From IMG/VR virus record IMGVR_UViG_3300034418_003613, positions 13,088 to 77,087 of that record: a stretch of 64,000 bases of DNA; one strand, written 5' to 3'. Of this stretch, positions 12,841 to 32,890 are shown in pieces. Within the stretch, counting starts at the first letter, position 1, and each line of letters starts with the position of its first letter. Position numbers and translations under genes: made by a program. The notes beneath the pieces are model-generated. The model searched no databases. It was given only the letters and a program-made list of their open reading frames with translations, and was not told the origin of the DNA. The DNA is from a virus.

Positions 12841-13128
12841 ATGGCAGCTAAGAAGGATCCAAAGTTGACTAGAGCTGGTGTATCAGGTTATAATAAACCT
12901 AAGAGGACACCAAGTCATCCTACGAAGTCACATGTTGTTGTAGCTAAGAAAGGTGATAAGACAAAGCTTATCCGCTTTGGTCAACAAGGTGTAAAGGGTG
13001 CAGGTAAGAATCCTAAGAGTGCGAAAGATAAAGCACGAAAGAAGAGTTACTACGCTAGACATAATGCCCAGGATTCTAAGCCGGATATTTTTTCAGCACG
13101 TTACTGGTCTCATAAAGTAAAATGGTAA
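12841..13128 (+). CDS. Small Lys-rich basic protein
   Basis: 95 aa: GYNKPKRTPSHPTKSHVV..KLIRFGQQG..RKKSYYARH..SARYWS (DUF6321-like, from memory). Confidence 0.7.
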   Translation: MAAKKDPKLTRAGVSGYNKPKRTPSHPTKSHVVVAKKGDKTKLIRFGQQGVKGAGKNPKSAKDKARKKSYYARHNAQDSKPDIFSARYWSHKVKW

Positions 13129-14021: not shown

Positions 14022-17000
14022 ATGGCTAAGAAGAAACAAAATATTCAGAACAAAGGTGCTGACTCTGTAGAGACTAATGTTTTTGTGAAGGGTATGAACA
14101 AGGATATCAATCCTAGTTACGAACCCAAACAATCTTGGACTCACGCAAGAAACGCTGCAAACAATTCTACAGACGGTGATGTAGGAGTACTGGGTAACGA
14201 ACCAGCTAACTTAGCCTGTGGTGTAGTTCCATATACAGTTATTGGAACAGTGCATTTATATGCAGATGAGTGGGTGCTGTATACCACTGATAATACTAAC
14301 TCTGAGATAGGTCTCTTTGATGATAGTAAATGCGAGTATAAGACTTTGGTCAATTCCAAGTGTCTTAACTTCAACAAAGAGAATTTAATTCAAGGTGCCG
14401 CAAAAGAGAACTTTGACTGCAGTTGGCAAGTATACTGGGATGATGGGAGAAACCCGTCTCGTACTCTTAATCTAGACAATATTCCTTACCAGCAAACTGT
14501 TACCTCTACACCTGGTGATGATTGTGTTATCTATGAAGATACGACCATACTAGATTGTGAGAAACTCAGATTGGCACCTCTTCTTGACACTCCTATTGTC
14601 AAACTTTCCAAAGCTCCCGATGGAGGATCTTTAAGGAATGGTATGTATCAAGCTTATATAGCTTATACTGTAAATGAGCAGAGAGTAACAGACTATATTG
14701 GTGTATCTAATCTGCAGAGTCTTTTTGATCATGACGGCACTGCAGGGTCTCTGGATATTAAGGTGTCTAATCTGGATAAAGACTTTGAGTTTTTTGAATT
14801 AGTTATTCTTAGCAACAACGCAAATAATTATGCAGCCAAGAAGATTGGGTTGTATAGCACTGAGACTAGTTCTATTTCTGTTGACTATATAGATCAGTCA
14901 TTAGTCAGTATCCCATTAGAATTATTGCCAGCTAGAAGCCCTGCGTATGAGAAGTCAGATGCAATGTTTGTTGTTAATGATTGGCTTATACGTAAAGGTC
15001 CTACAGAACAATTTGATTTTAACTATCAACCCAGAGCTAATCAGATTAAGACTGAATGGGTAGTTGCTGAATATCCTGCTGAGTATTATCGTAAGGGAGG
15101 TAACAGCACCGGCTTTATGCGTGATGAGCAGTATGCTTTCTTTATCAGATGGATTTATAATACTGGTGAAAGATCTAAGTCTTATCATATTCCAGGCAGA
15201 CCGCCAAAGAGTTCTTTTAGAAATCAGTTTAATGAGCAGATCAATAGTAGTGAAGATGGTCTAGCAGGTGGCGGAGGTCTCAATGTTTTAAGCTCTAGAG
15301 AAAAGAACTTTCAGGTATACGATACATCTACCATTCAGGCGACAGGATTAAATAATCCTACAGGGGATGGAGGTTTGGTTATTGCCAAGGGTGAGATGAG
15401 TTACTGGCAGTCTACAGAGAAGTATCCTGCAACACAACCTGAAATCTGGAATGCTACTTACACAGATGTAACTACAGGAGTAAACATTGGTGGTACCGGA
15501 GACTCTCGCTTTGATTTATGTGGTAAGTATATCCGCCATCATAAGATGCCAACTGAAGAACGTGGGCCTGAGTTGCACTTGACAAATGATTCTAATAGTA
15601 GGATTAGAGTGCTGGGTGTACAGTTCAGTGATATCAAACCTCCGGTGTTTAATGATGGCACTGTCATACCAAATATAGTTGGCTATGAGATCTTACGAGG
15701 TTCAAGAGAAGGACAAAAGTCTATCCTAGCCAAGGGAATATTTAGGAATATGCGTAAGTACAATATTCCTGAGGGTGGGCAGACCGGGGGTAATCCTGTA
15801 GGTCTTTATCCAAACTATCCATACAATGATCTAAGACCTGATGTTTATTTCCATGATGGTCAGAGAAGAGATGATCATAGAACAGATGGTACTCAGAAGT
15901 ATGCTGATTCTATTGACGACTTTAAACCACTTACAAGTGTAGCTAAGAAGTTCTTTACATTCCACTCACCAGAGCTGATGTTCAAAAGACCTTTCTTGAA
16001 TGCTTATGAGACAAGACTATATGGAGATCTTTCCGGTACATCTGTAGGGCATTTTATTAAGTCAGAGAATCATCCTCAGAATAAATTAATCAGAAATATT
16101 GCATCCATCATTGCCAGTATTATTGGGATTGGCTATGCAATTTCAAGAATAAGAGGAACTCAGGAGTCTGAACTACAAGGTTTAAGTATAAATAATAATC
16201 TTGTTGCTAATGATTATTTAGATGTTGATGTTCTCGGTGTAGGTGGTGGAGCGTCTGTTCCATATGTACCTTTTGTTGGCCCACCAGGTACAGGTGCTCT
16301 ATACGAAACAATTAGTGCAGAACAAGGTATTAATCTTGGGGTAGGTAGTTTGTTTGATTTGCTAGGAGAGATATTACTACAAGATGTAGTCGATATAAGC
16401 ACTATTTGGTTGGGACAAGGAGCTGTTGATCTTACGATGAGCTTTGGGCAAGGTAAAAATCTTACTTTAGCTTCTCGAACACCAGGTACAGACTCTGGTA
16501 AGAATATTGAGAGATTTAAAGTTGAACATCCTAGTGGCAACCTTCCAAAGTTTTTACAAGCAGCCTTTGGTTATTTTATTGCTCGTTTCAATATTGCAGA
16601 TGGTGGAAATGAAATCATAGAGTTAATCTATGGTCTTATCAAGGAAGAGGATTTTGCATTTAAGCATAACTCTCACGGCTTCTATGATACATTTACTACT
16701 AGACCAAATGGTCAAGTGTATAGGACTAGAAATGAAGACTCAAACTATATAGGTAGTACATATCAGGCTTTTAATGGTTTTAAGATTAATAATCTATTTA
16801 GACCAGATACCGTAGCAGTTGCTACTACAGATAATATAGATGATCCTAGTATTGTAGATAAATCAAGATATGTTATTAGTGGAGATGGCGGTGGTCCATT
16901 TTCTGAGTCCGTAGCTAATAAATATTTAAGGAATCCTGAGCAAGAACAAAAGAGAGATATCTCAGCAGTTTATGGTGCTTTAAAGTTTGACGCTGAGAAT

Positions 17001-20000
17001 CAGTATGGTCAACTTGATGGCATTAAGCAGGTTCAGATGCGTGGTACAATAGAACTAGTATCAGCTAATAATCCTCAAACTAAATTTTCTTCTTCTCCTA
17101 TATTTGCTGGTGATGTATATATCAACAGGTATACTGAGAAAACCATTATGCCAATCTTTGCTGACTTTTTAAATGGTCAGCCAGATCAATATACTTATGA
17201 TTACCTGCAGCGTGTAAACATTCCATACCCAAGATATTGGATGGATACGCGGAAGTTTGATATGACTAGTTTGGCAAACGAGATTGTTGGTCTGTCTTTA
17301 CCCAAAACAAGTGATCCTTTACCATCAGATCTATTCTATTTAGATAGACATAATGCAAGCATTCATGGAAGCTTAAATATATTTGACGGCGATAATGATC
17401 CCAACCCTGTTTTTGCTATGCGATATGGGTATATGTATACTCATGTCAATGGTATTCAGGACTTCTTTGTAGAGTCAGAGTATAACCTAGCTCAAAGAGA
17501 TTGGGAGGAAGCTCAGGACAAGAGGTTCTATGATCCTTATGAGTATGCTAACACGGATGATTTATTTCATGCAGACATAATCAAGAAGGACAACTACTAT
17601 AAGTATGATATCTCTCTGAGTGTATCAAAGTTCCTCACTCAGATATCTAATTTTGGAGAGGTTCAAACTAGAGATTACGATCCTAAGGTTGCTGAAGATT
17701 GTTTTAGTTATTACCCTAAGAGATTAATATACTCTCTTCAGGCCAAGACAGAATCTAAGAAAGATTTCTGGAGAGTTTTCTTACCAAACAACTACAAGGA
17801 TTTTAAGAATCCTATCAATGTAATCAAGCCTATTAATAAGAGCGGTGCCTTAGTATTATTCCCATACCAGTCACCTCAGATGTTTCAAGGTCTGGATACA
17901 CTGAAGACAGATTTAGGTACTAAGCTTACTATAGGTGATGGTGGTTTATTTAGCCAACCTTTCCAGAACATTACAAACTCAGATTTATCTAATGAGTATG
18001 GATCATGTGAGAGTCATAGGACTGTAATTAATACACCTATGGGTGTGTTCTTTATATCACAGGCTCAGGGTAAGATATTCCATTACACAGGTAAGCTAGA
18101 GAACATTGCTAATAATGGTATGAAGTGGTGGTTCAATAAGTACTTACCATCTCAGTTGATTAAGCAGTTTCCAGCATTAGAAGAAACACCATTAGCAGAT
18201 AATCCTGTAGTCGGTGTAGGATGCCAGTCTATCTATGATGTAAATAATGATGTAGTATATTTCTGTAAGAGAGACTTTAGGGTTAAAGACCAGTATAAAG
18301 ATCAGGTCAACTATACAGTACAGAATGGTTTTACATTCAATGGTTTTGTACTGCAGCCGCAGGTAAATGACGATGCACCTATCCTAAGTACTAAGATTAC
18401 ATTAGGAGATCCTCTCTACTTTGAGGATGTATCTTGGACTGTAAGCTATGACCCTAAAGCTAAGGCTTGGATCTCATTCCATGATTGGCATCCAGAACTG
18501 TGCATGCCTAGCATTAATCATTTCCTAACAACAAAGGAAAAGCAATTAGATCAACCATATTGTCCACCAGGGTATAGTTATAATCCCGTAACTCAAAACT
18601 GTGAGATAACTATTGGTGACTCTGCCCCAGCAATTGTAAATGTAGAAGAGGTACTTGCTAATCTACAGACACAGACTTGTGATATTGATTTGGTATTATG
18701 CATGGACTACTCTGCAAGTACAAATGCAAATCAACAATCAATTCTTAAAAATCAACATCAGTTTATTTCTGATTTTTTAGACAATTCTGATGTACAGTCA
18801 GCTCTATCTTCTGGTAGATTACAAATGGGCTTTACAGCTTTTGGTAGTGCAGAAAGCACTTTTATGAATCTAAGAACTAGTGGCAATGTTCAAAAGACTA
18901 TGGCTAATACTTTTGATCCTGACACTGTTATTGATGGATTAGGTTTTAGTTCTAGTGCAACAGCTTACTATAACACATTAGATCCTAGCGGACAAAAAAC
19001 CAATTTCTGTCGTGGTATATATAATGCGTTTGAAGTTTTAAATTCTAAGAGTACTACAGAACTTGGTGATAGAAGTGGTAATGCTAATTTTATTCAGGCG
19101 GTAATAGTTATTACAGATGCTCGTTGTAGAGCTAATACAACCAGCCCTCCAAACAGCTTTAATGAAAAAAATAATTGCCGGGCTGGTGGTTCTTCAATTG
19201 GTATGACATATCAAAGCAGTCTTCTAGGTGGTGGTGGTCCAGCCAATCAGTATATCTACACTGTATGGTGTGGGGAGAATCAGGATGTTTTTGATAGTCA
19301 AGGCAATATTAAAATATCTGATGATTGTGCTAATGCAACTCAGGGTATTTATCCTTTTACCGGAAATGATATTTTAGATAATCTTACTGGTGATGCTAAT
19401 ACACCAAACAGACAGAATCAATATATCATTCTTTCGCAACAGCCATTGAATGACCAGAAAACAGATTATGTTGCACAGCAGATTATTAACTCTATTTGTT
19501 CTTTTTCATGCTCTTGTCCAACGGGTTACACTTTAGTATATCCGGGCAACAATGGTTACACAGAACCAACAGGTGACTGTAATGATGTTAATCCACCTAT
19601 ATGTAGAAAGATTGGGTGTGAATGTCCTCCTCCTATAAATCCTAAAGGACTCACAACGAAGATTGGTAACTGTGATGATGTTTATAAAGCAGGACCTAAT
19701 GGAGATCCTAACTATGTAAACCCTAATCCAGTTATCTGTAGTTTCTTTTATGAGGATATTACACCTGCCGTAACTACAGGTTCTGGTATATGGAGACATA
19801 ACTATAGGTGTGATTTGTTTGCTAACTACTATGGTGTAGATTATCCATGGGAAGTAGAGTTAGTAGAAAACACAGGTCAGAATGTAAACACTGTTAGAAG
19901 TTTAGAATATCAGTTAGAGTCTTACGTCTATAAAGGAGATCTGCACGATGGGTGTGGTGATGACAGATGGCATGATCTTGATTTCAACTTTGATGAGCTG

Positions 20001-20396
20001 ATTGTTCATAACACAGAACAAGTGTCTGGATTACTAAGAATCCACAATCAGTTCAAGAATGATCCGATGAAAGGATTAGAGTATCCAAAAGTGAATCTTT
20101 CAGATATTGAAATACTCTCATCAAAAGTTGAACAGAAATATCGTATTAATCAATTCTGGGATACTACCCATGATAGAGGTGAGTTTTCAAATGCTCAGCA
20201 AGAGATATTTAAAACACGCCGGAATGGTTATATCAGAGATTTAAACTCTGGCAACTTAGATTATAGCAAGTCTGCTTTTGAAAGAAAAAAGTTTAGACAT
20301 TACTATAACAAGTTCTTATTAACAAGAAGGATTTCAGCAGATAGAAAGATGCTGTTGAAGCTAAATAATACCAAACTTAATTTATCATTCAGGTGA
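14022..20396 (+). CDS. Muzzle / tail stabilization protein with inserted vWA domain
   Basis: 2124 aa. N-terminal 'FVKGMNKD', beta-propeller-like 'YWDDGRNPSRTLN', 'FMRDEQYAF', 'WTVSYD..WISFHDW'. vWA MIDAS DYSAS at 18705-18719. Confidence 0.75.
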   Translation: MAKKKQNIQNKGADSVETNVFVKGMNKDINPSYEPKQSWTHARNAANNSTDGDVGVLGNEPANLACGVVPYTVIGTVHLYADEWVLYTTDNTNSEIGLFDDSKCEYKTLVNSKCLNFNKENLIQGAAKENFDCSWQVYWDDGRNPSRTLNLDNIPYQQTVTSTPGDDCVIYEDTTILDCEKLRLAPLLDTPIVKLSKAPDGGSLRNGMYQAYIAYTVNEQRVTDYIGVSNLQSLFDHDGTAGSLDIKVSNLDKDFEFFELVILSNNANNYAAKKIGLYSTETSSISVDYIDQSLVSIPLELLPARSPAYEKSDAMFVVNDWLIRKGPTEQFDFNYQPRANQIKTEWVVAEYPAEYYRKGGNSTGFMRDEQYAFFIRWIYNTGERSKSYHIPGRPPKSSFRNQFNEQINSSEDGLAGGGGLNVLSSREKNFQVYDTSTIQATGLNNPTGDGGLVIAKGEMSYWQSTEKYPATQPEIWNATYTDVTTGVNIGGTGDSRFDLCGKYIRHHKMPTEERGPELHLTNDSNSRIRVLGVQFSDIKPPVFNDGTVIPNIVGYEILRGSREGQKSILAKGIFRNMRKYNIPEGGQTGGNPVGLYPNYPYNDLRPDVYFHDGQRRDDHRTDGTQKYADSIDDFKPLTSVAKKFFTFHSPELMFKRPFLNAYETRLYGDLSGTSVGHFIKSENHPQNKLIRNIASIIASIIGIGYAISRIRGTQESELQGLSINNNLVANDYLDVDVLGVGGGASVPYVPFVGPPGTGALYETISAEQGINLGVGSLFDLLGEILLQDVVDISTIWLGQGAVDLTMSFGQGKNLTLASRTPGTDSGKNIERFKVEHPSGNLPKFLQAAFGYFIARFNIADGGNEIIELIYGLIKEEDFAFKHNSHGFYDTFTTRPNGQVYRTRNEDSNYIGSTYQAFNGFKINNLFRPDTVAVATTDNIDDPSIVDKSRYVISGDGGGPFSESVANKYLRNPEQEQKRDISAVYGALKFDAENQYGQLDGIKQVQMRGTIELVSANNPQTKFSSSPIFAGDVYINRYTEKTIMPIFADFLNGQPDQYTYDYLQRVNIPYPRYWMDTRKFDMTSLANEIVGLSLPKTSDPLPSDLFYLDRHNASIHGSLNIFDGDNDPNPVFAMRYGYMYTHVNGIQDFFVESEYNLAQRDWEEAQDKRFYDPYEYANTDDLFHADIIKKDNYYKYDISLSVSKFLTQISNFGEVQTRDYDPKVAEDCFSYYPKRLIYSLQAKTESKKDFWRVFLPNNYKDFKNPINVIKPINKSGALVLFPYQSPQMFQGLDTLKTDLGTKLTIGDGGLFSQPFQNITNSDLSNEYGSCESHRTVINTPMGVFFISQAQGKIFHYTGKLENIANNGMKWWFNKYLPSQLIKQFPALEETPLADNPVVGVGCQSIYDVNNDVVYFCKRDFRVKDQYKDQVNYTVQNGFTFNGFVLQPQVNDDAPILSTKITLGDPLYFEDVSWTVSYDPKAKAWISFHDWHPELCMPSINHFLTTKEKQLDQPYCPPGYSYNPVTQNCEITIGDSAPAIVNVEEVLANLQTQTCDIDLVLCMDYSASTNANQQSILKNQHQFISDFLDNSDVQSALSSGRLQMGFTAFGSAESTFMNLRTSGNVQKTMANTFDPDTVIDGLGFSSSATAYYNTLDPSGQKTNFCRGIYNAFEVLNSKSTTELGDRSGNANFIQAVIVITDARCRANTTSPPNSFNEKNNCRAGGSSIGMTYQSSLLGGGGPANQYIYTVWCGENQDVFDSQGNIKISDDCANATQGIYPFTGNDILDNLTGDANTPNRQNQYIILSQQPLNDQKTDYVAQQIINSICSFSCSCPTGYTLVYPGNNGYTEPTGDCNDVNPPICRKIGCECPPPINPKGLTTKIGNCDDVYKAGPNGDPNYVNPNPVICSFFYEDITPAVTTGSGIWRHNYRCDLFANYYGVDYPWEVELVENTGQNVNTVRSLEYQLESYVYKGDLHDGCGDDRWHDLDFNFDELIVHNTEQVSGLLRIHNQFKNDPMKGLEYPKVNLSDIEILSSKVEQKYRINQFWDTTHDRGEFSNAQQEIFKTRRNGYIRDLNSGNLDYSKSAFERKKFRHYYNKFLLTRRISADRKMLLKLNNTKLNLSFR

Positions 20397-23300
20397 TGAA
20401 AGGGAAATACGAAAAGTCAGAGCGTAGAGGTTTACCTGGTGGACCCAATGAGATGTTTACTTATACAACTGGAATATTCTCTACCCAGGGATATAAGAGA
20501 GACTCCCCTGATGTAGATAACCCTTTTAACATTATTCCTTCAGGTGACATTACCATGAAGGGTGTGGACTTCCCTGTTCTAGGTACAGACAATTTAGGGA
20601 ACTCTAAGATGATGACTCCCGGTAATGATTATAAGTTTCCTGGAGATATGGTATTTGAACTTCCCATGGCTAAAGATGGCTTAGCATTAGATCCTCCGTC
20701 AAAAGAAAAGGAGATGGTTAATCTTCATGACTTTCTAATAACTGAGGAAGATCTAGAGTTTCTTAATAGTGAGCGTTGTTTTGGAGGTAACTGTTTGGAG
20801 AACACAAGAAAGGCTTTTGATGCAACAGCGGGTAGTATCTCGGGTGTTCCCTATACAGCTAATGTTTGGGGAAAAGATGATCTGGATATAACAAGCATTA
20901 AAAACACACCAACTAAGCAGCAAGTACAAGACTTTCCATGGATGGATGGTGATAGAGGGGTGGGTGCTGCGGATAGTTGGGATATACAAGGAAACATAGT
21001 ACGTGCAGAAGGTAAGACTTTATATAACAGGAATAAGGAGGGCGCAAAGATTGAATCTGATGACAAAGAGATTGATGATCCTACAGGAAAGTTTCAACCC
21101 GGTCAATACCCTATAGGATCTATTTACAGTTTTGGTCCTAAGGGTCGCACCGATACACCTTATGGGCAAAGAGCAAAAGGATTTAATATTGATTATGGTT
21201 TACAACCATCTCATCATAGTGTTATGTCTGTTGGTGTAAATGAAAAAGGAGAAATTATTCTTTATGATGCATATCTAAAGAAATATGATACAGAAGAGAA
21301 TATTATAAAGCAAATAGCTAATTCACCGCTAGGCTACGAACTTGAAACAGTAGGAGTACCAAAGAGTTATGCTAGCCTTACTCCTCAGAACATTAAACTA
21401 TCTGACAACTTTTATAGACCTCGTTATTTTACAGAGTATCAGTTTGATGTTGATCGTTTAGATGAGATTAGACAAGATCCTAAGTTTAGGATTAAAGAAG
21501 ATGATAAGTTTAGAGCACCTCGTCTAGATAAAGAGGCTATGCAGGAGTTTAGCCAATCTCTTAAAGATAACAAAGAGACTATGATGGAAGCTCTACGCCT
21601 TACTAGTGATGAGTATGATGACTTAGCAAATTTGTCAATAGCATTGGCAATGGGTGAATCTGAAGGAGGGGGTGGTCTTAGTGTTGATTGGGCTGGTTCC
21701 ACACAAGGTCTTACTCAGTTGAACTTTGACAACATCAAAGATGATGAAGTATTAAGTCGTCAGCTTGCTATGTTCAATGAAAGTGTTAGAGGTCCTCAAA
21801 AGATTAAACAATTAGCAGATTTAAGAGACCCGGCAAAATCAGCTATTGCTACATTGATATATACAAATGCTGGCAGAAGACGATCTAGTAAGTTGTATGA
21901 AGAGGGTCTAGAACCTGGTGTTAGAAATTTTTATGACAACACTGGGCTTAAAGATTTAGTAAGATCCTCATCTTCAAGGATTAATAGATCCGGTGTTTAC
22001 TTAGATGAGTTAAATGATAGAGTCAGTTTTTCTGATATTCCTGGATGGAATGAAAAAAATGTAAAAAAGATTACAACTTCTTTAAATGCTTTAACGGGCA
22101 CTAATAGATATCAAGCAGATATTGATGATGATGGAGATGTCTATATAAAGATGAAGACATTAGGCAATGACCCTAACATGTCTGATGCAATGAAGATAGG
22201 TTATTGGTGGCAGAGCCCTTCATCATTAAAAACAGGGGATGCTCAGGGTGGTAATGTACATGCTAAGAGAATAGAAGGATATTACAAAGCCATCTCTGAA
22301 AAAACTCCAGAGGTTTCTACCGACAAGCTAATGGCAAGCAACACAGAGATTCCTGAGATGCAAAAGGCTGGAGAGTTAAAAGCACAAGATCTAGTCCCTC
22401 GTGATCCATTTAGTACTTTGAGTCCTGCTCAACGTGAAGCTTTTAACGCTAGCACTGTAGCAGCTCTGAAAGCTGAAGAGGAACGACAGTTGAAGGAATA
22501 CATGAGAAGAAGCCCTGGGGGTGATTTGTTTCCGGATCAAGGTCTAAAACCTATTACTTATAATGAAGAAGTAGCAGGTTGGTTCCCTGTAGCAGGTGAA
22601 TACATTGATGCAAAAAATACTGGAGAAGCTTTAATGCGAGGTGACTATGTAGATGCTGGTTTTAATGCTGCTGGTTTTCTCTTACCGTTTATTCCTGGTA
22701 GTTTTCTAAAAAAACTAGCCACTTCTCCTTATACTCCTAAATTTTCTAAGCCTTCTCTTTTAAAACAATATAGATCAAAGTTTCCTGCAGCAGATATACG
22801 CGGTGCGGGTACAGGTGATTATAGCAATCTTGGCATTGATGAGTTAGGATTACGTGGAGATGACTTTATATCATTGACAAATTATGAGCGCAGTGCTATT
22901 TCTCAAGTAAATCAGGCTCAGGCAGCTGATGATGTTTTTAACACTTTTGTTCAGCGGTATGCAGATTTTAACACGGATGATGCTTTAGCAAATCAGTTGG
23001 CAGATTTTTCAAGAAAGAATCCAAGGACCAAGTTTGAAATGAATCTTGGCAAAGACGCTACGCCTTCTAAAAGAATGCAAGAAATATTTGATGATCCTGA
23101 ATTAAACATACATAATGTTTTTAGTCTTGAGTCTCCAGGTCCTACGACCGTCAAAAATACATATACCGGATACTATGACAAACGTTTTTATGATGGGTCC
23201 GCTCATGATCCGAGTGGGGAGTGGGATAAAAACTTAAGATCTTATGGTCAGCAAGGGTTTTATGCAACAAATGTTCCTACAGGAAAACCGGTAAGACAGT

Positions 23301-24682
23301 CTTTAACTCACACTAACAGAAGAGGTGAACTTTTTGATTACAAAATAGAAACAGTACCTGTTGCAGATTATATGGTAAATAAGGGATTAATGAACCCAGA
23401 TAATATAGTTAATTTAGGTCGCCATAGAGGACTTGATCCGGCTAATCAACATAACCATTTATTATTTGATACTGATAAACCATCTGTTATTGTATCTGGC
23501 AATAGAGGTTTTGCTGGGTTAAGTGGTGGTAATACGTCTAGAATGCAAATGGGTAGGGTAGGCATTCCAAAACCTAATAGAAATGTCCCTTCTTATAATA
23601 CAGAAATACTTCCTTTGCTGAAGCAAGAGTTTAATTTATCTAGGCCATTTGAAGGAACCTTTATGAAATTACCAAGGTCTAGAACAACTTATTATAACAG
23701 TAAAGGTGAAGCATCTAAATATATTAATGATCGTCAATTAGATTCTGATATATTTTTTACAAGAAAAAATGGCGGCCCACTACCTAAAGCTCAAGAAGGG
23801 CAAGAAGTATATAAGGTCAAGTCAGGTGATACTTTTTTAGGCATTGCCAATAGATTGGAAATACCCAGAGAAGACTTTATAGAGGCTAACCCTGATATAA
23901 ACATTGACAAGCTTTCGTTGGGTCAGAAGCTTAATATTCCTGTGAAGAAACCTTATGTACCAACTAATGATGTTATACCATCTGAGATGTTATGGAGGCA
24001 AGCTTTTGCAGAATCTAACTGGGAGACTGATGTAGAAAATAAAGGAGGCTATAAAGGTTTGGGTCAGATTGGTGATGATGTTATTACAGATTACAAGAAG
24101 GCATTTAAAGTCAAAGAAGTAGATCCATTTGATCCAGTTCAGAATTCTACTATTCACAAGTGGTATATGAATAAACTATACAACAGTGAATGGATAAATA
24201 AACCTAATCAGGATCCTAATGTGCGTTTAGCAAAAGCTCTTGCTGCTTACAACTGGGGACCGAAGACAGCTAGAAAGTGGTTTACTGATCAAAGGAAAGC
24301 CGGTGTTGATATCTATAATAGTTTTGATTGGCTAGAGGATTTACCTAGCGAGCCAAAGGGATACATAGATATGATCATCTTTAATAAGAATACTCCCACT
24401 AGGAAGTATGTTGAGGACTTGGCAAAGGCTATGACAGATACAACACTTACTAATCAGATTACTAATCTATATAAGAGAGCGGGAGGTGAGATGAATAAAC
24501 TAGAGATGTATAAGGGTTACATCAATGGTGAGTTTGATGGTACAGATCTAGAACCAAAAGCTCAAAAAGTTTATGATAGAATGAATAGAGTTTACTATGC
24601 GCCAGCCAAGAAAGCAGGTATGTCTCCTCCTAATTTTATCATGACAAACATCATCCCACGGCAGCTTCAGACTGTTCTCTAG
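20393..24682 (+). CDS. Modular virion cargo protein: papain/CHAP-like module, lytic transglycosylase-like module, pre-toxin-TG-like + unknown module, LysM + SLT transglycosylase
   Basis: LysM (YKVKSGDTFLGIA..NPDINIDKLSLGQKLNIP) and SLT (AESN..GLGQI..DPVQN..LAAYNWGP) are clear. A second ES..GLTQ..DP module and a C...H...D module are recognisable but weaker. Confidence 0.75.
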   Translation: MMKGKYEKSERRGLPGGPNEMFTYTTGIFSTQGYKRDSPDVDNPFNIIPSGDITMKGVDFPVLGTDNLGNSKMMTPGNDYKFPGDMVFELPMAKDGLALDPPSKEKEMVNLHDFLITEEDLEFLNSERCFGGNCLENTRKAFDATAGSISGVPYTANVWGKDDLDITSIKNTPTKQQVQDFPWMDGDRGVGAADSWDIQGNIVRAEGKTLYNRNKEGAKIESDDKEIDDPTGKFQPGQYPIGSIYSFGPKGRTDTPYGQRAKGFNIDYGLQPSHHSVMSVGVNEKGEIILYDAYLKKYDTEENIIKQIANSPLGYELETVGVPKSYASLTPQNIKLSDNFYRPRYFTEYQFDVDRLDEIRQDPKFRIKEDDKFRAPRLDKEAMQEFSQSLKDNKETMMEALRLTSDEYDDLANLSIALAMGESEGGGGLSVDWAGSTQGLTQLNFDNIKDDEVLSRQLAMFNESVRGPQKIKQLADLRDPAKSAIATLIYTNAGRRRSSKLYEEGLEPGVRNFYDNTGLKDLVRSSSSRINRSGVYLDELNDRVSFSDIPGWNEKNVKKITTSLNALTGTNRYQADIDDDGDVYIKMKTLGNDPNMSDAMKIGYWWQSPSSLKTGDAQGGNVHAKRIEGYYKAISEKTPEVSTDKLMASNTEIPEMQKAGELKAQDLVPRDPFSTLSPAQREAFNASTVAALKAEEERQLKEYMRRSPGGDLFPDQGLKPITYNEEVAGWFPVAGEYIDAKNTGEALMRGDYVDAGFNAAGFLLPFIPGSFLKKLATSPYTPKFSKPSLLKQYRSKFPAADIRGAGTGDYSNLGIDELGLRGDDFISLTNYERSAISQVNQAQAADDVFNTFVQRYADFNTDDALANQLADFSRKNPRTKFEMNLGKDATPSKRMQEIFDDPELNIHNVFSLESPGPTTVKNTYTGYYDKRFYDGSAHDPSGEWDKNLRSYGQQGFYATNVPTGKPVRQSLTHTNRRGELFDYKIETVPVADYMVNKGLMNPDNIVNLGRHRGLDPANQHNHLLFDTDKPSVIVSGNRGFAGLSGGNTSRMQMGRVGIPKPNRNVPSYNTEILPLLKQEFNLSRPFEGTFMKLPRSRTTYYNSKGEASKYINDRQLDSDIFFTRKNGGPLPKAQEGQEVYKVKSGDTFLGIANRLEIPREDFIEANPDINIDKLSLGQKLNIPVKKPYVPTNDVIPSEMLWRQAFAESNWETDVENKGGYKGLGQIGDDVITDYKKAFKVKEVDPFDPVQNSTIHKWYMNKLYNSEWINKPNQDPNVRLAKALAAYNWGPKTARKWFTDQRKAGVDIYNSFDWLEDLPSEPKGYIDMIIFNKNTPTRKYVEDLAKAMTDTTLTNQITNLYKRAGGEMNKLEMYKGYINGEFDGTDLEPKAQKVYDRMNRVYYAPAKKAGMSPPNFIMTNIIPRQLQTVL

Positions 24683-24703
24683 ATTAGATTTTTCCCTTAA
24701 TTA

Positions 24704-24716
24704 TTTGTATATTATA
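24704..24716 (+). promoter_or_regulatory. Promoter-like box TTTGTATATTATA
   Basis: Located 8 nt upstream of the 24725 ATG. Confidence 0.65.
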
Positions 24717-24724
24717 AGTGTATT

Positions 24725-27322
24725 ATGAAGAGAGCTCGTTTAAATAAAAAAGGTTTAGCTAAGTTCCAGAATGCGGGGGAGTTTAAGAAAGAGCTTAGAC
24801 CAATCGGATCAAGAGAACCAAAGAAACCAATAACCCTTCAGGGTATGTCTGGTATGTCTTTGAAGGAACTAGACAAATTAAAAGAGGCTCATGGACTTCA
24901 TAAGTCCAATCTTGCAAAAACAGAGGATTACAAAAAGTATGAAGATGATTGGAAGAACCTTCTAGAAAGACAGCAAGTTTTTGTTACTCGAATTGGGGAT
25001 AAATATAGAAGACCTTCTTTTAATCTTAATTATGATACGCTTGGTTTACATTATGATCACGAGTTATTTAATGAAATATCCCCTGAAGATAGCGCGGAGT
25101 TACAATCTCTTCTTGACGAGGAAATGGACTTTTCTAGTCCAGAGAATTTAGAGATGTGGGAAGAGATGGATTGGAGAGATTGGCATAGTGATGAAATAAG
25201 ACATGCTTATAGTTCTGCTGCTACAGCAGATAAAGTTAGTGACGCGCTAAGTAAGATACCGGGTTATGGAGGAGTTCTGGAATATACTGGTATGAATGAT
25301 GTTTTAGGTTTTTTAGCTTCAAACCTTTTAGGTGCTGGTCATGAAGCTGCTTTTTTTAAGGACCAGATGTCTGAGGAAGAAGATAAGTATGACTATGTTA
25401 GGTCGGGTATGAACTCTGCTGAAGACATGTGGAATAATTTATTGGGTGCTTACATAGGAGCTACATCAGATAGTGAAGAAGAGATGGAACAAAAGATTAG
25501 ATCTTATATAAATAAAGGTATAACAGCTACAGGGGGAATAGAACCAGCACAAGATCCTAATACTCTTGGTATCAAGAAAGCTTTAAAAAACTGGGTAACC
25601 AACAATTCTTCAGATCTAGAGCCAGCGTTTGAAGAATATCAAAAAGGAGGTAACTGGCCTGATAATAAATTTATGACCTTGGTTGATCCTAAAGGTAGAA
25701 AATCAAAAAGTCCAAGAGATCCTTCACTTCGCATTGGAGCACAAACACTTGCACCAGTAATGCGGAAGACTGATGATGATATCAGAACTGCCTATGGGTT
25801 TACAGTTAATCCAGCTTTGTACTCTTATGTTTTTGACAGAGACCGCAATTCTGAATTAAGGGGTACTCTTAGAAATGAAATATTCTGGTATCAAAGCCCT
25901 ATAGAAAAAGATGCATATAATCAAGATATACTTCAGGGTGGTTTAGGAGCCATGGCTGATATCGACTACACAACCTTACTTCAAAAGCGTAACATGAGAA
26001 ACATGGCCATTGATCTTGGTCTTGATGCTGGGTTAGGTGTAGGAACTATGGAAGTAGGCCCCATGTATGAGTATGATAAGGATAATGCTGGCCAGGCTTT
26101 ACCTTATGGATATCTTACAGGGAAGGCGGGTTTAAGAGATCGTAGAAGCGGACTTCAAGGTAATATATTTGCCGGGTATGGAACTCCCAGATCTCCAGAG
26201 GCAGGATTTAGAATAGGAGCGGAAGGGAGTATTCCTCTTATTACAAACAAGAGAGGATTGAAGATTACTGGTCATCCTTCTGCTAGTTATGACTTTATAT
26301 CTGGTACTCCGAGGTTTGGGTTTAGTATTGGGTTCAATTCTCCTTCTAGAAGGCAGCAAGGTGGTTCAACGTCTACAGCTCAAGGTAGTAGTTTGGCGGA
26401 GGATGTTATAGGTCAGATTCGGCTGGGAGTCTCTGCTGTAAAAGTTTATAAAGATCTTTTAAGGCAGATGATACCTGTTGATGAGATTGATAATGCTTTT
26501 ACTCAAGCCGGATATGATCAGAATACTATTACTCAGCTTCAGCGTCAGGCTAGTAAAAGTATTACAGATGACATGGTAGATACGTCTATAGCGGAAAGAG
26601 GAATCAGACAAGCTAAATCTGGTAAAGAGCTTTTAAATAAACGTAAGAGACTTCCTAAATATCAAGACCTTGGAGAGTTTCCCGATCCTACTGGAAAGTT
26701 TGAAGCAGAATATGATCAGATGAATGTGGAAGGAGAGGAGATGGATAATATGAATTATGAACCTCCAGTTACACCATCTACAGCATCTACAGCTAGCGGA
26801 AGTGTGGATGTTAATATTCCTGCGTCTAGTGTAGCTTCAGTAGAAACGGCAGATGCTACACCTGAGAATGAAGCAAGGATGCTTAAGGAGATGGAGGAGT
26901 TTAGAAATATTGGTGCTGAATCAGGTGGTCTTAGAGGTTTTGTGGGTAAGGTTGGGGACTTTGTAAAGTCTGAAGGCTTTCAAAACTTTTTAGATGGCTA
27001 TGGCACTGTTGGTAACGTAGGTGTTGGCTTAGCAAGTATGACAAATAAGTTTCTTAGAGATAGAGATGCTAGAGATGTAAAAAATCAGAGAAGGCAAATG
27101 ACACCAGCTGATATGATGTATTCTATGTATGAAGAAAGAGACGGCGACAGAGGTGATGTTGATGTACGTTCAGGTATATATCAGCCGGATAATTTAGTTG
27201 CTGCAATGGGTATGGAGATGCCTTCTATGATGCCGCCTGTTATTCAGGAACAGATTGTAGATTTAGATACTGAAACTATTACAAGATTGATATCTGCTGG
27301 TGCGGATATAGAAATGTTATAA
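24725..27322 (+). CDS. Modular virion cargo protein (RH..HE..DxxNN helical module + beta-barrel-like module)
   Basis: 865 aa, no Cys. DEIRHAY..GHE..EDMWNN motif followed by ~230 aa of alternating Gly/aromatic beta strands. Confidence 0.6.
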   Translation: MKRARLNKKGLAKFQNAGEFKKELRPIGSREPKKPITLQGMSGMSLKELDKLKEAHGLHKSNLAKTEDYKKYEDDWKNLLERQQVFVTRIGDKYRRPSFNLNYDTLGLHYDHELFNEISPEDSAELQSLLDEEMDFSSPENLEMWEEMDWRDWHSDEIRHAYSSAATADKVSDALSKIPGYGGVLEYTGMNDVLGFLASNLLGAGHEAAFFKDQMSEEEDKYDYVRSGMNSAEDMWNNLLGAYIGATSDSEEEMEQKIRSYINKGITATGGIEPAQDPNTLGIKKALKNWVTNNSSDLEPAFEEYQKGGNWPDNKFMTLVDPKGRKSKSPRDPSLRIGAQTLAPVMRKTDDDIRTAYGFTVNPALYSYVFDRDRNSELRGTLRNEIFWYQSPIEKDAYNQDILQGGLGAMADIDYTTLLQKRNMRNMAIDLGLDAGLGVGTMEVGPMYEYDKDNAGQALPYGYLTGKAGLRDRRSGLQGNIFAGYGTPRSPEAGFRIGAEGSIPLITNKRGLKITGHPSASYDFISGTPRFGFSIGFNSPSRRQQGGSTSTAQGSSLAEDVIGQIRLGVSAVKVYKDLLRQMIPVDEIDNAFTQAGYDQNTITQLQRQASKSITDDMVDTSIAERGIRQAKSGKELLNKRKRLPKYQDLGEFPDPTGKFEAEYDQMNVEGEEMDNMNYEPPVTPSTASTASGSVDVNIPASSVASVETADATPENEARMLKEMEEFRNIGAESGGLRGFVGKVGDFVKSEGFQNFLDGYGTVGNVGVGLASMTNKFLRDRDARDVKNQRRQMTPADMMYSMYEERDGDRGDVDVRSGIYQPDNLVAAMGMEMPSMMPPVIQEQIVDLDTETITRLISAGADIEML

Positions 27323-27324
27323 AC

Positions 27325-29658
27325 ATGGCAAAAGTTAAAATAAATAAACTACCTCCTGGGTTTGCTCTTGAAGATGGAAAGATTGTAGAGCGAATGGAAG
27401 AGGGCGGTTCTACAGGAGATCAGTCTGGTTACAGCATGGTCAAGTATCCGACTAGCGTAACATCTGAGCAGATGAGTGATAAAGAAAGCTCTGATGTAAG
27501 ATACAGTCTGTCTTCTGTACCCAGAGAAATGGCTAATCTAGAAGCCGAGGGTGGAGAGACTGTATTAACAGACTTGAATAATGATGGCAACTTTGGTCTA
27601 TATGATATTAAGGGGCCAAGACATAGCCAAGGTGGTGTGCCTATGTTTTTACCAGAACAATCCTTTGTTTACTCTGATACAAAGGAGATGAAGATGAAGG
27701 GTAGTGAACTTGCTGAGTTTGGTATTGAGAGTAAGAAATCTATTACACCTGCTGATATATCTCGCAGATATCAGTTGAATAAATTTTATGGTGCTATTGA
27801 TGATGAGTTTGCTGATGAGATGCAAGTGAAATCAGCAGAGCTTATGCTGGATAAAAACAAGATGGGATTGTCTAAGCTAGCTTTTAATCAGGAAATGAAG
27901 AAGCAGTTTGAAGATGGCGTTCCGTTGGCATCACATCCCTACCTATTATCAATAGGGGAAGACCCTATTGCGTTCACAGCTAGAGTAGAAGATATGAATG
28001 AACAGCAAGCCATGATGAAGGTGTTTGATGCTTTACCTCCTGAGCAGCAGCAACAAGTTTTAGCTCTTCAAGAGTTTATGGCACAGGCACAACAAATGCC
28101 ACAACAAGGGCAACCACAAATGCAGGTTGATCAGCCAGCAATGCCTGTTGCAAGAGATGGTATGGAGATACTTCCAGAGTTTCAGAGGGGCAAAGAGTTT
28201 AGTGTTTATGATCCTGGTTTTGCAGAGAATCTTAAAGCATTAGGTTATGATATAGACCTTTCTAGTGTTCCTGCTACTGATTATAGTAGAGTTCAAGGAG
28301 CTGTTTCAAATGCTCAAGGAAGTCTTTTTGGAGGTGCGAAAGAAAATCTTCCCGGTTTCTATCAAGAATGGGAAGGTCTATATCCAGGACTAGACAAGTT
28401 GAAAGAAGCTGTGGCTAAAGCAGGCGAAGGAGAAACTGTTCCAGAAGTAGGTGACTTCCAAAACTGGGTTAATGATGTATACATTGCTGAACAAGCTAAA
28501 GCCGCAGCACCTAATGATCCTGCTAAGCAGAAGCAGTTAGAAAATCTCTTGCGTAGAGACTATGGTTTTAGCGGTACTACTGGTAAGAAGGTTGACTCAA
28601 AGATGGGTACAAATACTTCAGCCATGAGACCTTTGTCTATTACAGCAACCCCTCAAGGTACAGGTCAAACAGAGCAAACAGGGAAAAAGACTGAGACAAA
28701 AAAATTAGAATCTGGTGATGTCTCTGATCCTAAACCACTACCTAAACCATCTTTTTGGTTGCAGGATCTTGCAAAGATGTCTGCAATGGCCAGAAGAAAA
28801 AGAAATCTTTATTTACCATATCAACCAGAAGCCGAAGATCTGGATATTGATTATGTATTAGAAGATCCTACTAGGGCTGTTGCTGCTATTGCTGAGCAAG
28901 CTAACATTATCAACACTGCTAACAACATGTATGCAGGTGCTCAGGCTGGAAGTGCAAAAGCTGCTTCCACAGCGGGTAAGTCCATGAAGGCTGCTGCTGA
29001 TGCTGTTGCTGCAGTTCAAGCTAGGAATGTAAATACAATCAATAGAGGTGAGTATCAGAATGCGATGCTTGATGCTACTATCAATCGCGAGAACAGAGAC
29101 AGGAATGTCAAGGAGTTTGATGATACAACCATTGCATTACAACGTTATGATGACGAGCGTAACTTTGATAGGGAGCAGTTAGCAGATGCTTATTCAAATG
29201 CTATGACTAACATGGCTAATACTTATAACATGAATCTAATGCAGGATTATTTTCAGATTGATCCTAGCACAGGTGGTATGATTGGTCAGGTTAGTGGTAG
29301 AGCTTTTGAAGCTACAAAACCTCAAGATAGAGTGGAGGATTATTTGAATTTGGCGGCAAGATTAAAAAAAGAAGGGGTTACGCCTACTGCAGATCTTATT
29401 GCGCAGTTATTACCTCAGGAGTCTGGTATGCCTATGACTAACATTCAGGCTGAGTATGCCAGACAACAACCAAATCTGCAGTATAACCAATACGGAGCTC
29501 AAGGATTTCCTGGGACTATGTATCCTGGAATGTACGGTGAAAATCCTTATGGGTATTATAACCAAACAATGCCCTATCCAAGAATGGAAGAAGGTGGGGA
29601 GAAGAAAAAATTAAAGAAATTTGCAACTCCCTTCTATACTGGAAAGACTGGAGTTTAA
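27325..29658 (+). CDS. Virion cargo/ejection protein
   Basis: 777 aa, no Cys. 'NLEAEGGET..GPRHSQGGVP..VYSD' segment as I recall in crAss-like cargo proteins. Gln-rich linker. Confidence 0.6.
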   Translation: MAKVKINKLPPGFALEDGKIVERMEEGGSTGDQSGYSMVKYPTSVTSEQMSDKESSDVRYSLSSVPREMANLEAEGGETVLTDLNNDGNFGLYDIKGPRHSQGGVPMFLPEQSFVYSDTKEMKMKGSELAEFGIESKKSITPADISRRYQLNKFYGAIDDEFADEMQVKSAELMLDKNKMGLSKLAFNQEMKKQFEDGVPLASHPYLLSIGEDPIAFTARVEDMNEQQAMMKVFDALPPEQQQQVLALQEFMAQAQQMPQQGQPQMQVDQPAMPVARDGMEILPEFQRGKEFSVYDPGFAENLKALGYDIDLSSVPATDYSRVQGAVSNAQGSLFGGAKENLPGFYQEWEGLYPGLDKLKEAVAKAGEGETVPEVGDFQNWVNDVYIAEQAKAAAPNDPAKQKQLENLLRRDYGFSGTTGKKVDSKMGTNTSAMRPLSITATPQGTGQTEQTGKKTETKKLESGDVSDPKPLPKPSFWLQDLAKMSAMARRKRNLYLPYQPEAEDLDIDYVLEDPTRAVAAIAEQANIINTANNMYAGAQAGSAKAASTAGKSMKAAADAVAAVQARNVNTINRGEYQNAMLDATINRENRDRNVKEFDDTTIALQRYDDERNFDREQLADAYSNAMTNMANTYNMNLMQDYFQIDPSTGGMIGQVSGRAFEATKPQDRVEDYLNLAARLKKEGVTPTADLIAQLLPQESGMPMTNIQAEYARQQPNLQYNQYGAQGFPGTMYPGMYGENPYGYYNQTMPYPRMEEGGEKKKLKKFATPFYTGKTGV

Positions 29659-32600: not shown

Positions 32601-32890
32601 ATCAGTATTATAATAAGTTTGATAAAGGTGGTGTTATGAGAGTTACTAGAAACGGTGATGGTGAGTACATGGGGCATATAACTCTTCAGCAGTTTGATGA
32701 TCAAACTGGTAGATTTTTAGATTTACCAGAGCAATCTATTAACCTAATGGAATATATGCGAGGTCAAGATCCAGAAATGTATTTGGATGCAGCCGTTTAT
32801 GAATTAGAACAAAAGACTATTGCTTCTAAGGCTGAAGCAAATAACAAGCTATATCAAGAGTGGAGTGCAGCTAATAAAGCAGAAAAGTAA
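29672..32890 (+). CDS. Virion cargo/ejection protein
   Basis: 1072 aa, helical, no Cys. N-terminal 'FKPFTPDY'. Directly upstream of the virion RNAP. Confidence 0.55.
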   Translation: MATYIPGVESYLPEFKPFTPDYKFLSDVLDTKTTRYNTNYKQLNDLYSKVVYAPLSREDTQSMRAQYTDGLSQKLQKISGMDLSLMQNVDAAKGVFKPFFEEDTIVKDMVMTKTYQDERAFANRLKNDPDKERYSMYNPDHVRAMDYRMQDFIDADPESALSAPLPQYVPDVDLYNMGIDLLKEQGFEVTKDILSPGGQFIVRQTNGNLVTAEALEFLQRSFVDDPRVQEAYYTKSFVEGRDKAAQFMEQGVVSSVEDGQRMWANETIDYFTRLAAERAAEQKQELSEKTHSVTSWDIFKKKYGIVEGSEQAKMMEEKFSEYQALSQSLQTTNNIISEGLVDGQGEPTQTLLNRAYNMTMQYNLKEDLIASARQYAKMTESTQITGENPDYTRDQQHKYDLMMEAIKQSNRERLAQMEAMLEGGGAARGFLDDALATPVGGAATLTVAAGKDGKVFDVLATNNQKIAEANNELIGGKIGAVLAALPYFQPDVNRNNSYTITLGGEEVSGSLDQLTKRLSKVNSEDNTYVYEEDINKMYSEYNAYLNPQPNSTGITLSDEDAAKKISQDYPSIVGDVYKNLKTRYTAVNKRQSRVNSVMVENGNHLKEQYDRIVQLIKTQKSGQVMEPKYQDVLKAINKGGLDFEIMVPAGDSYRMLSKQEFVERYVEGARAGKYEAIQGWWSRNTVLGQKSHYNKNYLKNVNYRAPLDLTPPPNRFVFAEDEAMKDASELYDIMYNMLNNTQNGKYTGEAEQIKDFREDGKDINTDVRDQRFFTTYNAGSGLMGRPQTGTVEDLVMYPGQRYIINPSTIGSYDSELLRQELSYAARQITSAGDQGITIQPGDMQDEDSNFDAPSDSVAEQIINAFLRDLNAYSITPKAQKGTPPSATFTYYPVYGNPEDLEKEHAAYVFEIDDQWIRENTGLLSTGGQKDRPISAFELAKYRTITVGFRKENDINPAREGQFNFSDVISDINYNDNHQYYNKFDKGGVMRVTRNGDGEYMGHITLQQFDDQTGRFLDLPEQSINLMEYMRGQDPEMYLDAAVYELEQKTIASKAEANNKLYQEWSAANKAEK

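Follow-up and report, generated by a model that had tools for sequence, protein, structure and literature searches.

The window analysed here is a stretch of 64,000 nucleotides of viral DNA (positions 13,088 to 77,087 of IMG/VR record IMGVR_UViG_3300034418_003613), and the subject of this report is a short peptide that recurs in the products of three consecutive genes, P0001 (20393-24682; 1429 amino acids, aa), P0002 (24725-27322; 865 aa) and P0003 (27325-29658; 777 aa). These are the first, second and third genes after the gene encoding the muzzle protein and, like the muzzle gene and the modules and tags placed below within the three genes, they lie on the plus strand. Their products are beads-on-a-string proteins, in which constant N- and C-terminal bookends surround exchangeable cassettes. 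The seams between cassettes and many of the protein ends carry one conserved peptide family, which sits in disordered linkers.

The 77-kb record, with an estimated completeness of 66%, derives from an uncultured crAss-like phage. The Pfam family Crass_capsid is found just upstream of the window, and CrAss_Ring_1 and CrAss_Ring_2 lie inside it, 5' of the muzzle gene (14022..20396; crAss_MUZ PF25731, E 3e-33), after which the cargo block opens. P0003 is followed by open reading frames (ORFs) of 1072 aa, 4940 aa (the giant one) and 1883 aa, in that order, so that P0001-P0003 stand directly 3' of the muzzle gene and 5' of the giant ORFs in the RNA-polymerase slot. The order muzzle, cargo, giant ORF is common to the related loci L001-L008. 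The equivalent slot of Bacteroides phage crAss001 encodes the cargo proteins C1 and C2 together with the virion RNA-polymerase proteins, all of which are packed in the particle (PMC10172136), and P0001-P0003 are probably likewise carried in the particle and injected. In Cellulophaga phage phi17:2, the homologue gp041 shares the P0001 N-terminal bookend, and its annotation as a 'virion structural protein' is based on similarity to phi4:1 gp40. Among GenBank phages there is no close relative, as neither megablast with the region nor tblastn with P0002 and P0003 returned a match. Judged by similarity of the muzzle protein, Leptolyngbya phage Lbo-JY46, csAssE-Sib, Cellulophaga phages phi4:1 and phi17:2 and phages of Flavobacterium psychrophilum come closest among cultured phages.

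P0001 begins with a constant bookend (aa 1-83; 20393..20641) that is the most conserved part of its family: aa ~2-96 retain 55-83% identity in ~99 otherwise divergent relatives, and the bookend is also present in phi17:2 gp041. It is followed by junction tag 1, GDMVFELPMAKDGLAL (aa 84-99; 20642..20689), with the family consensus FPGDxVFE[ILV]PMAQxG; the tag scores 16.5 bits with the position-specific scoring matrix (PSSM) described below, and 87 or more ends of high-scoring segment pairs (HSPs) fall at aa 90-100. Next come an NlpC/P60-like cysteine peptidase module (aa ~123-325; 20759..21367), which holds both cysteines of P0001, and a module with a lytic-transglycosylase (LT) fold (aa ~349-639; 21437..22309). 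In the AlphaFold model of aa 100-650 (m53cd306bd65f; 27 homologues; predicted local distance difference test score, pLDDT, 86), the former has VIA Z scores of 5.0-6.5 to NlpC/P60 and CHAP wall hydrolases, values that are middling but span the domain, and its C129, C134, H275 and D292 are invariant in the 27 homologues, in agreement with an NlpC/P60-like assignment. The latter matches Cj0843c, MltC, MltF, Slt70 and goose-type lysozymes (Z 8-9.7), and the glutamate of its GESEGGG word is invariant in the same homologues. Foldseek against the PDB gave nothing significant for aa 100-650 of P0001 or for the P0003 model. Junction tag 2, MASNTEIPEMQKAGEL (aa 647-662; 22331..22378; 11.0 bits; HSP ends at aa 630-660), closes this part, and the 75% relative P0131 carries EIPEMQVGGSLPKAQPG in its place.

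The region between tags 2 and 3 (aa 663-1123; 22379..23761), which consists of a ~55-aa hairpin-like unit and a ~350-aa domain, has no assignment: Pfam gave no match for aa 656-1125 at E up to 5, and the PDB none for aa 660-1123. The 'pre-toxin/toxin' label of the earlier note was not confirmed, neither PF14449 nor any toxin family being detected in aa 656-1125 or in 10 homologues; Atlas leads to ADP-ribosyltransferase-type families at sub-threshold level only (sub-0.9). An exhaustive search of representative sequences splits the region into two independent sub-modules (query residues 60-120 and 112-464), both of which recur in other motif-rich giant proteins. The hairpin-like unit (aa ~719-779; 22547-22729) is 45-65% identical to ~45 representative clusters with lengths of 125-2228 aa, and Pfam did not recognize it as PT-TG in P0001 or in nine homologues.

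Junction tag 3, RKNGGPLPKAQEGQEV (aa 1124-1139; 23762..23809), is the full composite form of the peptide and has the best PSSM score of the window (17.1 bits), with HSP ends at aa 1120-1150. It precedes a LysM domain (aa 1140-1183; PF01476, E 2.7e-8) and an SLT lytic transglycosylase domain (aa 1197-1303; PF01464, E 7.4e-11), which together occupy 23810..24301. The labels 'peptidase-like' and 'two transglycosylase-like' that had been proposed from the letters alone are thus borne out, by the NlpC/P60-like fold (Z 5-6.5), the LT fold (Z 8-9.7) and the Pfam match to SLT. Junction tag 4, YKRAGGE (aa 1360-1366; 24470..24490), is replaced in relatives by YLPGFKRGGE, YKQGGE, FKIGGE or YKSGGE, and 39 HSP ends lie at aa 1360-1369. 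The protein ends with a constant tail (aa 1367-1429; to 24679), aa 1362-1421 being common to 74 relatives. Other domains met with in relatives include YkuD, PG_binding_1 and GH24 lysozyme. Given its NlpC/P60, LT, LysM and SLT modules, identified by Pfam and by fold matches, P0001 is largely a wall-breaching chain, comparable in role to T7 gp16.

In P0002, the modules have no Pfam family and a profile search found no PDB match. The N-terminal tag LAKFQNAGEF (aa 11-20; 24755..24784) is conserved in P0004-P0008, and KKGLYQEGG or KKSVKQQGG stands at this place in relatives; in P0008, residues 22-297 are missing directly after the tag, which there reads LAKFQNAEEF. The junction tag YQKGG (aa 305-309; 25637..25651) is extended in P0006, P0008 and P0009 by an additional VLPKAQRGRG after YQKGGN. 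It opens a Gly-rich module (aa 310-542; 25652..26350), called beta-barrel-like in the earlier note, which is closed by the junction tag RQQGG (aa 543-547; 26351..26365), whose GG is invariant in 7/7 sequences. In P0007, aa ~308-545 are absent and the junction reads EEYQK|GGSMSTAQ, the missing stretch being delimited by the YQKGG and RQQGG tags. P0009 keeps the middle module, joined at GGNVLPKAQRGRG and RRQQGGSLPKAQDG to unrelated N- and C-terminal modules, and retains the C-terminal ...LIAAGADIQML. A further tag, LPKYQDLGEF (aa 643-652; 26651..26680), is conserved in close relatives and is the same word as LPKAQKLGEF and LPKAQNLGQF of P0003 homologues; it has no breakpoint evidence of its own.

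For P0003 there are more than 1000 homologues in metagenomes; an IMG/VR scan using P0003 alone found nothing. Its N-terminal tag, MAKVKINKLPPGF...ERMEEGG (aa 1-28; 27325..27408), appears family-wide as MAKIKINKLPEGFEIKDGKVVKKMQQGG, with G27 nearly invariant and G28 invariant, and P0106 has an insert of ~130 aa flanked by ..MKSGG and ..YATGG. The tandem junction tag MPVARDGME-ILPEFQRGKEF (aa 273-292; 28141..28200) aligns with a family-wide a-x-Y-G-x-E-LPKAQ-x-G, of which there are 69 distinct versions, followed by a hypervariable insert. In homologues, this insert after aa 292 often contains D-x-D-G-D-G-I-P-N words resembling thrombospondin-type calcium-binding repeats. The C-terminal tag PRMEEGGEK (aa 752-760; 29578..29604) stands before the conserved end KKFATPFYTGKTGV; relatives have KKGKE, KEGGE, KNGGE or RGGE at this place, then xKK[YF]AxPFYxGKxG. 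The AlphaFold model of P0003 (63 sequences; mean pLDDT 71) shows three folded regions, the first of which is domain 1 (aa 61-256; 27505..28092), and four long internal or C-terminal segments with pLDDT<50, namely 23-60, 257-289, 441-477 and 716-777. The motifs fall in three of the four (the C-terminal tag in the part 742-777), with none in 441-477, so that the comparison with AlphaFold domain boundaries proposed in the earlier note places the P0003 motifs in low-confidence linkers.

Long-helix matches dominate the VIA comparison of the whole P0003 model, and a PDB sequence search with the P0003 profile found nothing. The profile of domain 1, on the other hand, matches proteins in the C1 position of csAssE-Sib (5.5e-12), phi17:2 (gp041, 1.6e-6) and Fpv1 (gp31, 6e-6), and hhalign against a 7-sequence CARG1 alignment gave P 1.7e-4 with a probability of 49%. 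Pfam PF25725 (crAss_CARG1) was not detected in the record or in P0003 aa 55-215, and hhalign gave nothing when the P0003 family as a whole was compared with gp45 as a single sequence. Domain 1 is thus possibly the counterpart of the portal-bound CARG1 domain of crAss001 gp45, the sequence evidence being only suggestive. In phi17:2 gp041 (L010 14968-17655), the P0001 N-terminal bookend and the match to P0003 domain 1 (aa 356-462, E 1.6e-6) are found in the same protein. Since gp041 combines both, P0001 and P0003 of the window look like pieces of one ancestral cargo chain that was split or fused at tags.

Every string that the earlier note had cited was found at its nucleotide position. The core of the peptide family is Φ-[Q/K]-x-G-G(-E), the long form is G-x-E-[LIM]-P-[K/M]-A-Q-x-G-x-E, and a composite form reads ..K-x-G-G-x-LPKAQ-x-G... 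A logo of position frequencies over 196 distinct copies of the long form shows G(-6) in 52%, E(-4) in 48%, [LIVM](-3), P(-2) and K/M(-1), then A (94%), Q (90%), x, G and x, and E(+5) in 44%. The composite form is explicit and repeated within one protein of the related locus L001 (KQNGGQLPKAQEGNGE, AKGGQLPKAQDGNGE and ALGGSLPKAQKGNGE), and the short form Φ-[Q/K]-x-G-G(-E) reaches up to ~10 copies per P0002-like protein. In view of the composite and short forms in relatives and of the logo, the LPxAQxG and xxxGG classes that the earlier note had listed are halves or variants of one junction peptide.

The peptide is confined to the cargo genes. A post-hoc regular expression, [LIM][PA].[AFYM][QKR].[GAL].[EA][FLIV], has 7 matches in the three genes (3,071 aa) as opposed to 0 in the other ~16,900 aa of window proteins. 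As the original pattern was loose, a test independent of its fitting was made with a PSSM built from 66 distinct homologue versions of the site aligned with P0003 aa 273-292, from which the window's P0003 and a 93% twin were excluded. The three best scores in the window proteome (~20,000 aa) were those of P0001 aa 1124 (17.1 bits), aa 84 (16.5) and aa 647 (11.0), the maximum in shuffled proteomes having a mean of 5.9 and a 95th percentile of 11.7. The matrix was derived from P0003 homologues, and these top sites lie in a different protein, P0001, where they coincide with three sites of the earlier note. Per 1000 aa, the three genes have 2.3 motifs and the rest of the window 0.24; in seven related IMG/VR loci, the corresponding values are 2.7 and 0.37. 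Some of the cited copies fared less well: the bare GG class is not enriched in the window alone ([AFYM][QKR].GG occurs once in cargo and twice elsewhere), its support coming from homologues, and QAKSGKE has no independent support. Many module borders are also without the motif. The motif is enriched in cargo genes and at borders over shuffled or random controls, a comparison whose failure the earlier note had named as refuting its proposal.

Many P0001-family relatives have a second tag, GGWL[DN]KY, at seams and at their extreme starts or ends, in many cases with one more Gly-Gly pair after it. The window has no copy of it; crAss001 gp45 has AFGGWLNTQGG at the opening of its portal-bound domain (L009 8257-8292).

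Copies of the peptide within one genome differ in their codons (CTA/TTA, CCT/CCA/CCC, GCA/GCT/GCG, CAA/CAG and GGT/GGA/GGC). Because synonymous sites differ, conservation acts on the peptide, and a recombination signal at the DNA level was rejected on this ground. The peptide is conserved across phages of Bacteroidota and of a cyanobacterium. It occurs in Cellulophaga phage phi4:1, and phi17:2 gp041 contains the words LEVPNFQAGG, YQNGG, LKSGGE, FQIGG and FQSGG; in Leptolyngbya phage Lbo-JY46, MKIRIIGLPKAQIGMEE opens a P0003-like protein and YFQTGGYAKFQNAG and GFQQGG are found in a P0002-like one. The LPKAQ form is absent from crAss001, Fpv1 and csAssE-Sib. Since the motif is common to phages whose hosts belong to different phyla, its reader is more easily pictured as a phage component than as a host one.

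The relation of the peptide to module borders was assessed by all-against-all BLAST of the P0001 family (120 proteins). A cluster of alignment ends lies within 10 aa of 95/138 long-form motifs (69%), the expectation for random placement being 20.9 +/- 4.2 with a maximum of 38. When the first N-terminal motif is excluded, 55/86 internal motifs are still near a breakpoint cluster (null 11.7), and, seen from the other side, 38% of well-supported breakpoints are no more than 12 aa from a motif, compared with ~6% expected. Alignments of the window's P0001 with 119 relatives pile up their ends at aa 90-110, 630-660, 1120-1150, 1180-1190 and 1360; the LysM/SLT border accounts for 1180-1190, and the remainder are four sites of the earlier note. 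The sequences are related, and the counts are therefore not independent events; the effect is nonetheless large and is seen in three separate protein families. The unit formed by NlpC/P60 and LT (P0001 aa 100-640) behaves as one travelling cassette that occupies ~30 different positions in relatives. After it, a Gly-Gly element (x-x-GG) was seen by eye in 19/19 inspected cases, or in 10/19 with a stricter script pattern; before it stands a tag or the protein start in 8/19, several others having plain Pro/Lys-rich linkers. As part of the cassette borders use such linkers, the tag marks many seams, not all. The idea that modules are swapped at the motif, which the earlier note had suggested be examined by aligning orthologues, is therefore upheld by exact deletion, insertion and exchange at YQKGG and RQQGG and by the breakpoint enrichment in the P0001 family.

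Cysteine is nearly absent from the six ORFs of the cargo block (20393-53376), with 4 Cys in ~11,000 aa: two belong to the NlpC/P60 module, the 4940-aa protein has one 3 residues before its C-terminus and the 1883-aa protein has one at residue 4. By contrast, the muzzle protein has 32 and an ORF of 1122 aa has 33. The same contrast is apparent in phi17:2, Lbo-JY46, Fpv1 and csAssE-Sib. In all related loci, the 1072-aa ORF (29672-32890) begins MATY.PG...P..PDFKFL..VL..RQDRY, an N-terminus that resembles, by eye, those of crAss001 gp46 (C2), Fpv1 gp32 and phi17:2 gp040; crAss_CARGO2 (PF25712) did not match this ORF at E up to 5.

The interpretation that we favour, with somewhat less than even confidence, is that the peptide is an uncut junction and end tag for holding, ordering or threading cargo modules, which would at the same time be a safe seam where cassettes are exchanged, split or fused. 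A conserved virion component, possibly the portal wing, the lumen of the tail barrel or the scaffold, would use it as a short linear handle to grip, order or thread each cargo module at assembly and at ejection. With identical flanks on all cassettes, the tag may also act as a neutral seam, at which recombination could swap, delete, insert or split cassettes without harm to folding or loading. Ejection would deliver the modules as a chain, whose wall-degrading members would then work in the periplasm in the manner of T7 gp16. The 'capsid-loading tag' half of the earlier proposal is closer to this interpretation than its protease half.

Several observations point in this direction. The tag is found at extreme termini, both at protein starts (MQMGGQ..., MKDGGWLDKYNDGG..., MKIRIIGLPKAQIG...) and at protein ends (...KKEGGETGWLNKYK, ...KQPGGWLDKYQD); it lies in the last 25 aa of 18/120 P0001-family proteins and in the first 25 aa of 97/120 P0003-family proteins. 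With the tag often 2-10 residues from a protein end, cutting would serve little purpose there, and a recognition tag would be natural. The conserved stretch of 10-16 residues is longer than would be usual for a prohead-protease site and leans to a tag. Members of the gp45 family of gut crassviruses have AFGG[WE]L..GG upstream of the portal-bound CARG1 domain and F-A-Y-G-G downstream of it. In crAss001, the cryo-EM model includes residues 425-552 of gp45, which are ordered on the portal wing (PMC10172136). The modelled stretch begins at AFGGWLNTQGG (aa 425-435), and the chain is thus continuous through both upstream Gly-Gly pairs.

Other points weigh against an uncut tag. No partner for it was identified, the Gly-Gly arm of crAss001 is only a distant analogue that lacks LPKAQ, and the evidence linking P0003 domain 1 to CARG1 is no more than suggestive (hhalign P 1.7e-4; negative in Pfam). 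The long form has G-x-E on both sides, with E(-4) at 48% and E(+5) at 44% in the 196 copies, and such flanks recall the sites at which head proteases of the phiKZ and T4 types cut ([S/A/G]-x-E and [L/I]-x-E). Moreover, a loading signal and a cleaved propeptide may be one and the same terminal tag, as exemplified by the T4 capsid-targeting sequence, and modules with different likely destinations would gain from separation.

Next in order comes the possibility that the peptide is a site for a maturation or ejection-coupled protease, a phage enzyme that would cut at G-G or after G-x-E and free the modules as effectors. We regard this as unlikely, though it is the most serious competitor. The head proteases of T4 and phiKZ do process internal head proteins, cutting after Glu in similar short words. 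Here, the motifs lie in disordered linkers between self-contained modules, G-x-E occurs on both sides of LPKAQ, and the short N- and C-terminal pieces resemble propeptides. Precedents exist in the proposals that the fused RNA-polymerase polyproteins of crAss phages are cleaved, perhaps by a zincin-like domain (bioRxiv 10.1101/2020.03.07.982082), and that polyvalent proteins are processed by zincin-like peptidases (PMC5512222). In the 77-kb record (66% complete), no T4-type (gp21-like) prohead protease PF03420 was found, and the interval between portal and capsid holds only a scaffold-like ORF of 431 aa and no protease. The 'zincin fused to the RNA polymerase' that the earlier note had put forward as a candidate amounts to a HExxH string: HEAFH at aa 2069 of the 4940-aa protein (39103-39117) and HEADH at aa 432 of the 1883-aa protein (49018-49032) lie in regions that match no metallopeptidase family in Pfam. 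The 4940-aa RNA-polymerase protein, which according to the literature would be the expected target of cleavage, is not segmented by the motif and contains one weak LAKFQSAVE. This sole tag-like word, RLAKFQSAVEP (aa 4721; 47059-47091), is a copy of the P0002 tag LAKFQNAGEF; DUF7831 (aa 4479-4591) ends ~130 aa ahead of it, and another 220 aa separate it from the C-terminus.

Within the cargo block, the NlpC/P60 module is the sole peptidase fold. It was considered as the processing enzyme and rejected, being of a wall-hydrolase fold, fused to a transglycosylase and absent from most motif-bearing relatives. Nor is there a C39-type peptidase conserved with the Gly-Gly sites, as in double-glycine leader systems, NlpC/P60-like being the sole Cys-peptidase module. 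The position of tags 2-10 residues from termini and the uncut Gly-Gly arm in the crAss001 structure speak further against cutting. The words also recall Pup C-termini (..YVQKGGQ), the LPxTG of sortase substrates and the Gly-Gly sites of adenain/ULP enzymes, resemblances from which no conclusion is drawn. Of the earlier interpretation, the description of strings of modules that are bordered by a recurring peptide and exchanged there stands, and the maturation-protease site and its zincin are not supported: no prohead protease was found in the record (66% complete), its HExxH strings lack family support and the only peptidase fold of the cargo block is that of a wall hydrolase. A combination of the two readings, a portable cargo code of a large crAss-like clade in which any flanked module is loaded and then cut at G-G or G-x-E by a phage protease, appears less probable still.

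It is improbable that the peptide is a passive flexible linker, similar from place to place only because cassettes spread together with their flanks, with neither binding partner nor cutting. In favour of a linker are the coincidence of breakpoints and motif, the richness of the words in Gly and Pro, as is typical of linkers, and the plain Pro/Lys-rich linkers at some cassette borders. However, a passive linker does not account for the retention of residues that a linker does not require (L, P, A at 94%, Q at 90%, G and E) while synonymous sites vary, for the conservation of the word between Leptolyngbya and Cellulophaga phages whose adjacent domains are unrelated, or for its persistence at termini, where a linker is unnecessary. 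Least probable of all is a signal that acts after ejection, either read in the host envelope for anchoring or partition of periplasmic modules or serving as a refolding nucleus after threading through the tail: most identifiable modules do act on peptidoglycan (NlpC/P60, LT, SLT and LysM; YkuD, PG_binding_1 and GH24 in relatives) and the cargo is almost Cys-free, as expected of chains that travel unfolded, but a host reader would have to be very widely conserved for hosts in different phyla.

The tag bears on the way in which crAss-like phages select, package, order and eject a protein cargo of several megadaltons. Only fragments of the cargo were resolved in the crAss001 structure (PMC10172136), and a short conserved tag that is confined to cargo genes and common to phages of different host phyla offers a defined feature that can be mutated to study loading and ejection. 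Exchange of cassettes at a shared seam explains the diversification of injected wall-degrading and other effector modules. The three cultured carriers, phi4:1, phi17:2 and Lbo-JY46, make the question of whether the peptide is cut or uncut directly testable. Should the tag suffice for loading, proteins of choice could be brought into phage particles by means of it; if the portable, cut cargo code were true, it would represent a phage counterpart of virion polyprotein processing and a ready tool for packing foreign proteins into the particles.

In the searchable literature, we found no description of the peptide itself, of its repetition at seams and ends or of its restriction to the cargo genes of a wide clade; the class of modular virion-delivered proteins as such is already known (PMC10172136, PMC5512222).

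Comparison with known systems brings out what is shared and what is not. In polymorphic toxins, demarcation motifs such as VENN of CdiA and PT-TG are short conserved words between a constant part and exchangeable cassettes that favour replacement. The word here is a different one, occurs in many copies per protein and belongs to virion proteins, and Pfam did not detect PT-TG in P0001 or its homologues. In T4 and phiKZ-like phages, a short conserved peptide, the T4 capsid-targeting sequence, or processing at [L/I]-x-E or [S/A/G]-x-E marks packaged and ejected proteins, and the G-x-E flanks and the K-[FY]-Q-[DN]-x-G-E word resemble the T4 tag and its cut site. The differences are that no gp21-like protease was found in the record (66% complete) and that the present tag is internal, repeated and often C-terminal.

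The proteins C1 (gp45) and C2 (gp46) of crAss001 occupy the same slot, after the muzzle gene and before the virion RNA-polymerase genes (PMC10172136). Like the proteins described here, gp45 is a long chain, extended in part, with termini that are similar to those of P0003, and its portal-bound domain is flanked by Φ-x-Gly-Gly words (AFGGWLNTQGG ... FAYGG). On the other hand, crAss001 has no LPKAQ form, two cargo proteins only and no wall-hydrolase cassettes, and the Pfam families CARG1 and CARGO2 fail to detect the proteins of the window. The crAss001 paper describes neither a junction motif nor module exchange (PMC10172136). Polyvalent proteins are giant multi-domain proteins co-delivered with DNA, with shuffled effector domains that include peptidoglycan-degrading ones and for which domain processing has been proposed (PMC5512222). 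Known from phages and conjugative elements, they are defined by their domains and a zincin-like peptidase, and the word 'linker' is absent from the paper that describes them (PMC5512222). P0001 is similar in uniting several unrelated domains in one chain (NlpC/P60, LT, the ~460-aa unit, LysM and SLT). It differs, as do P0002 and P0003, in that no MPTase or anti-restriction domain was detected, and the conserved junction and end tag is the distinctive feature of the three proteins.

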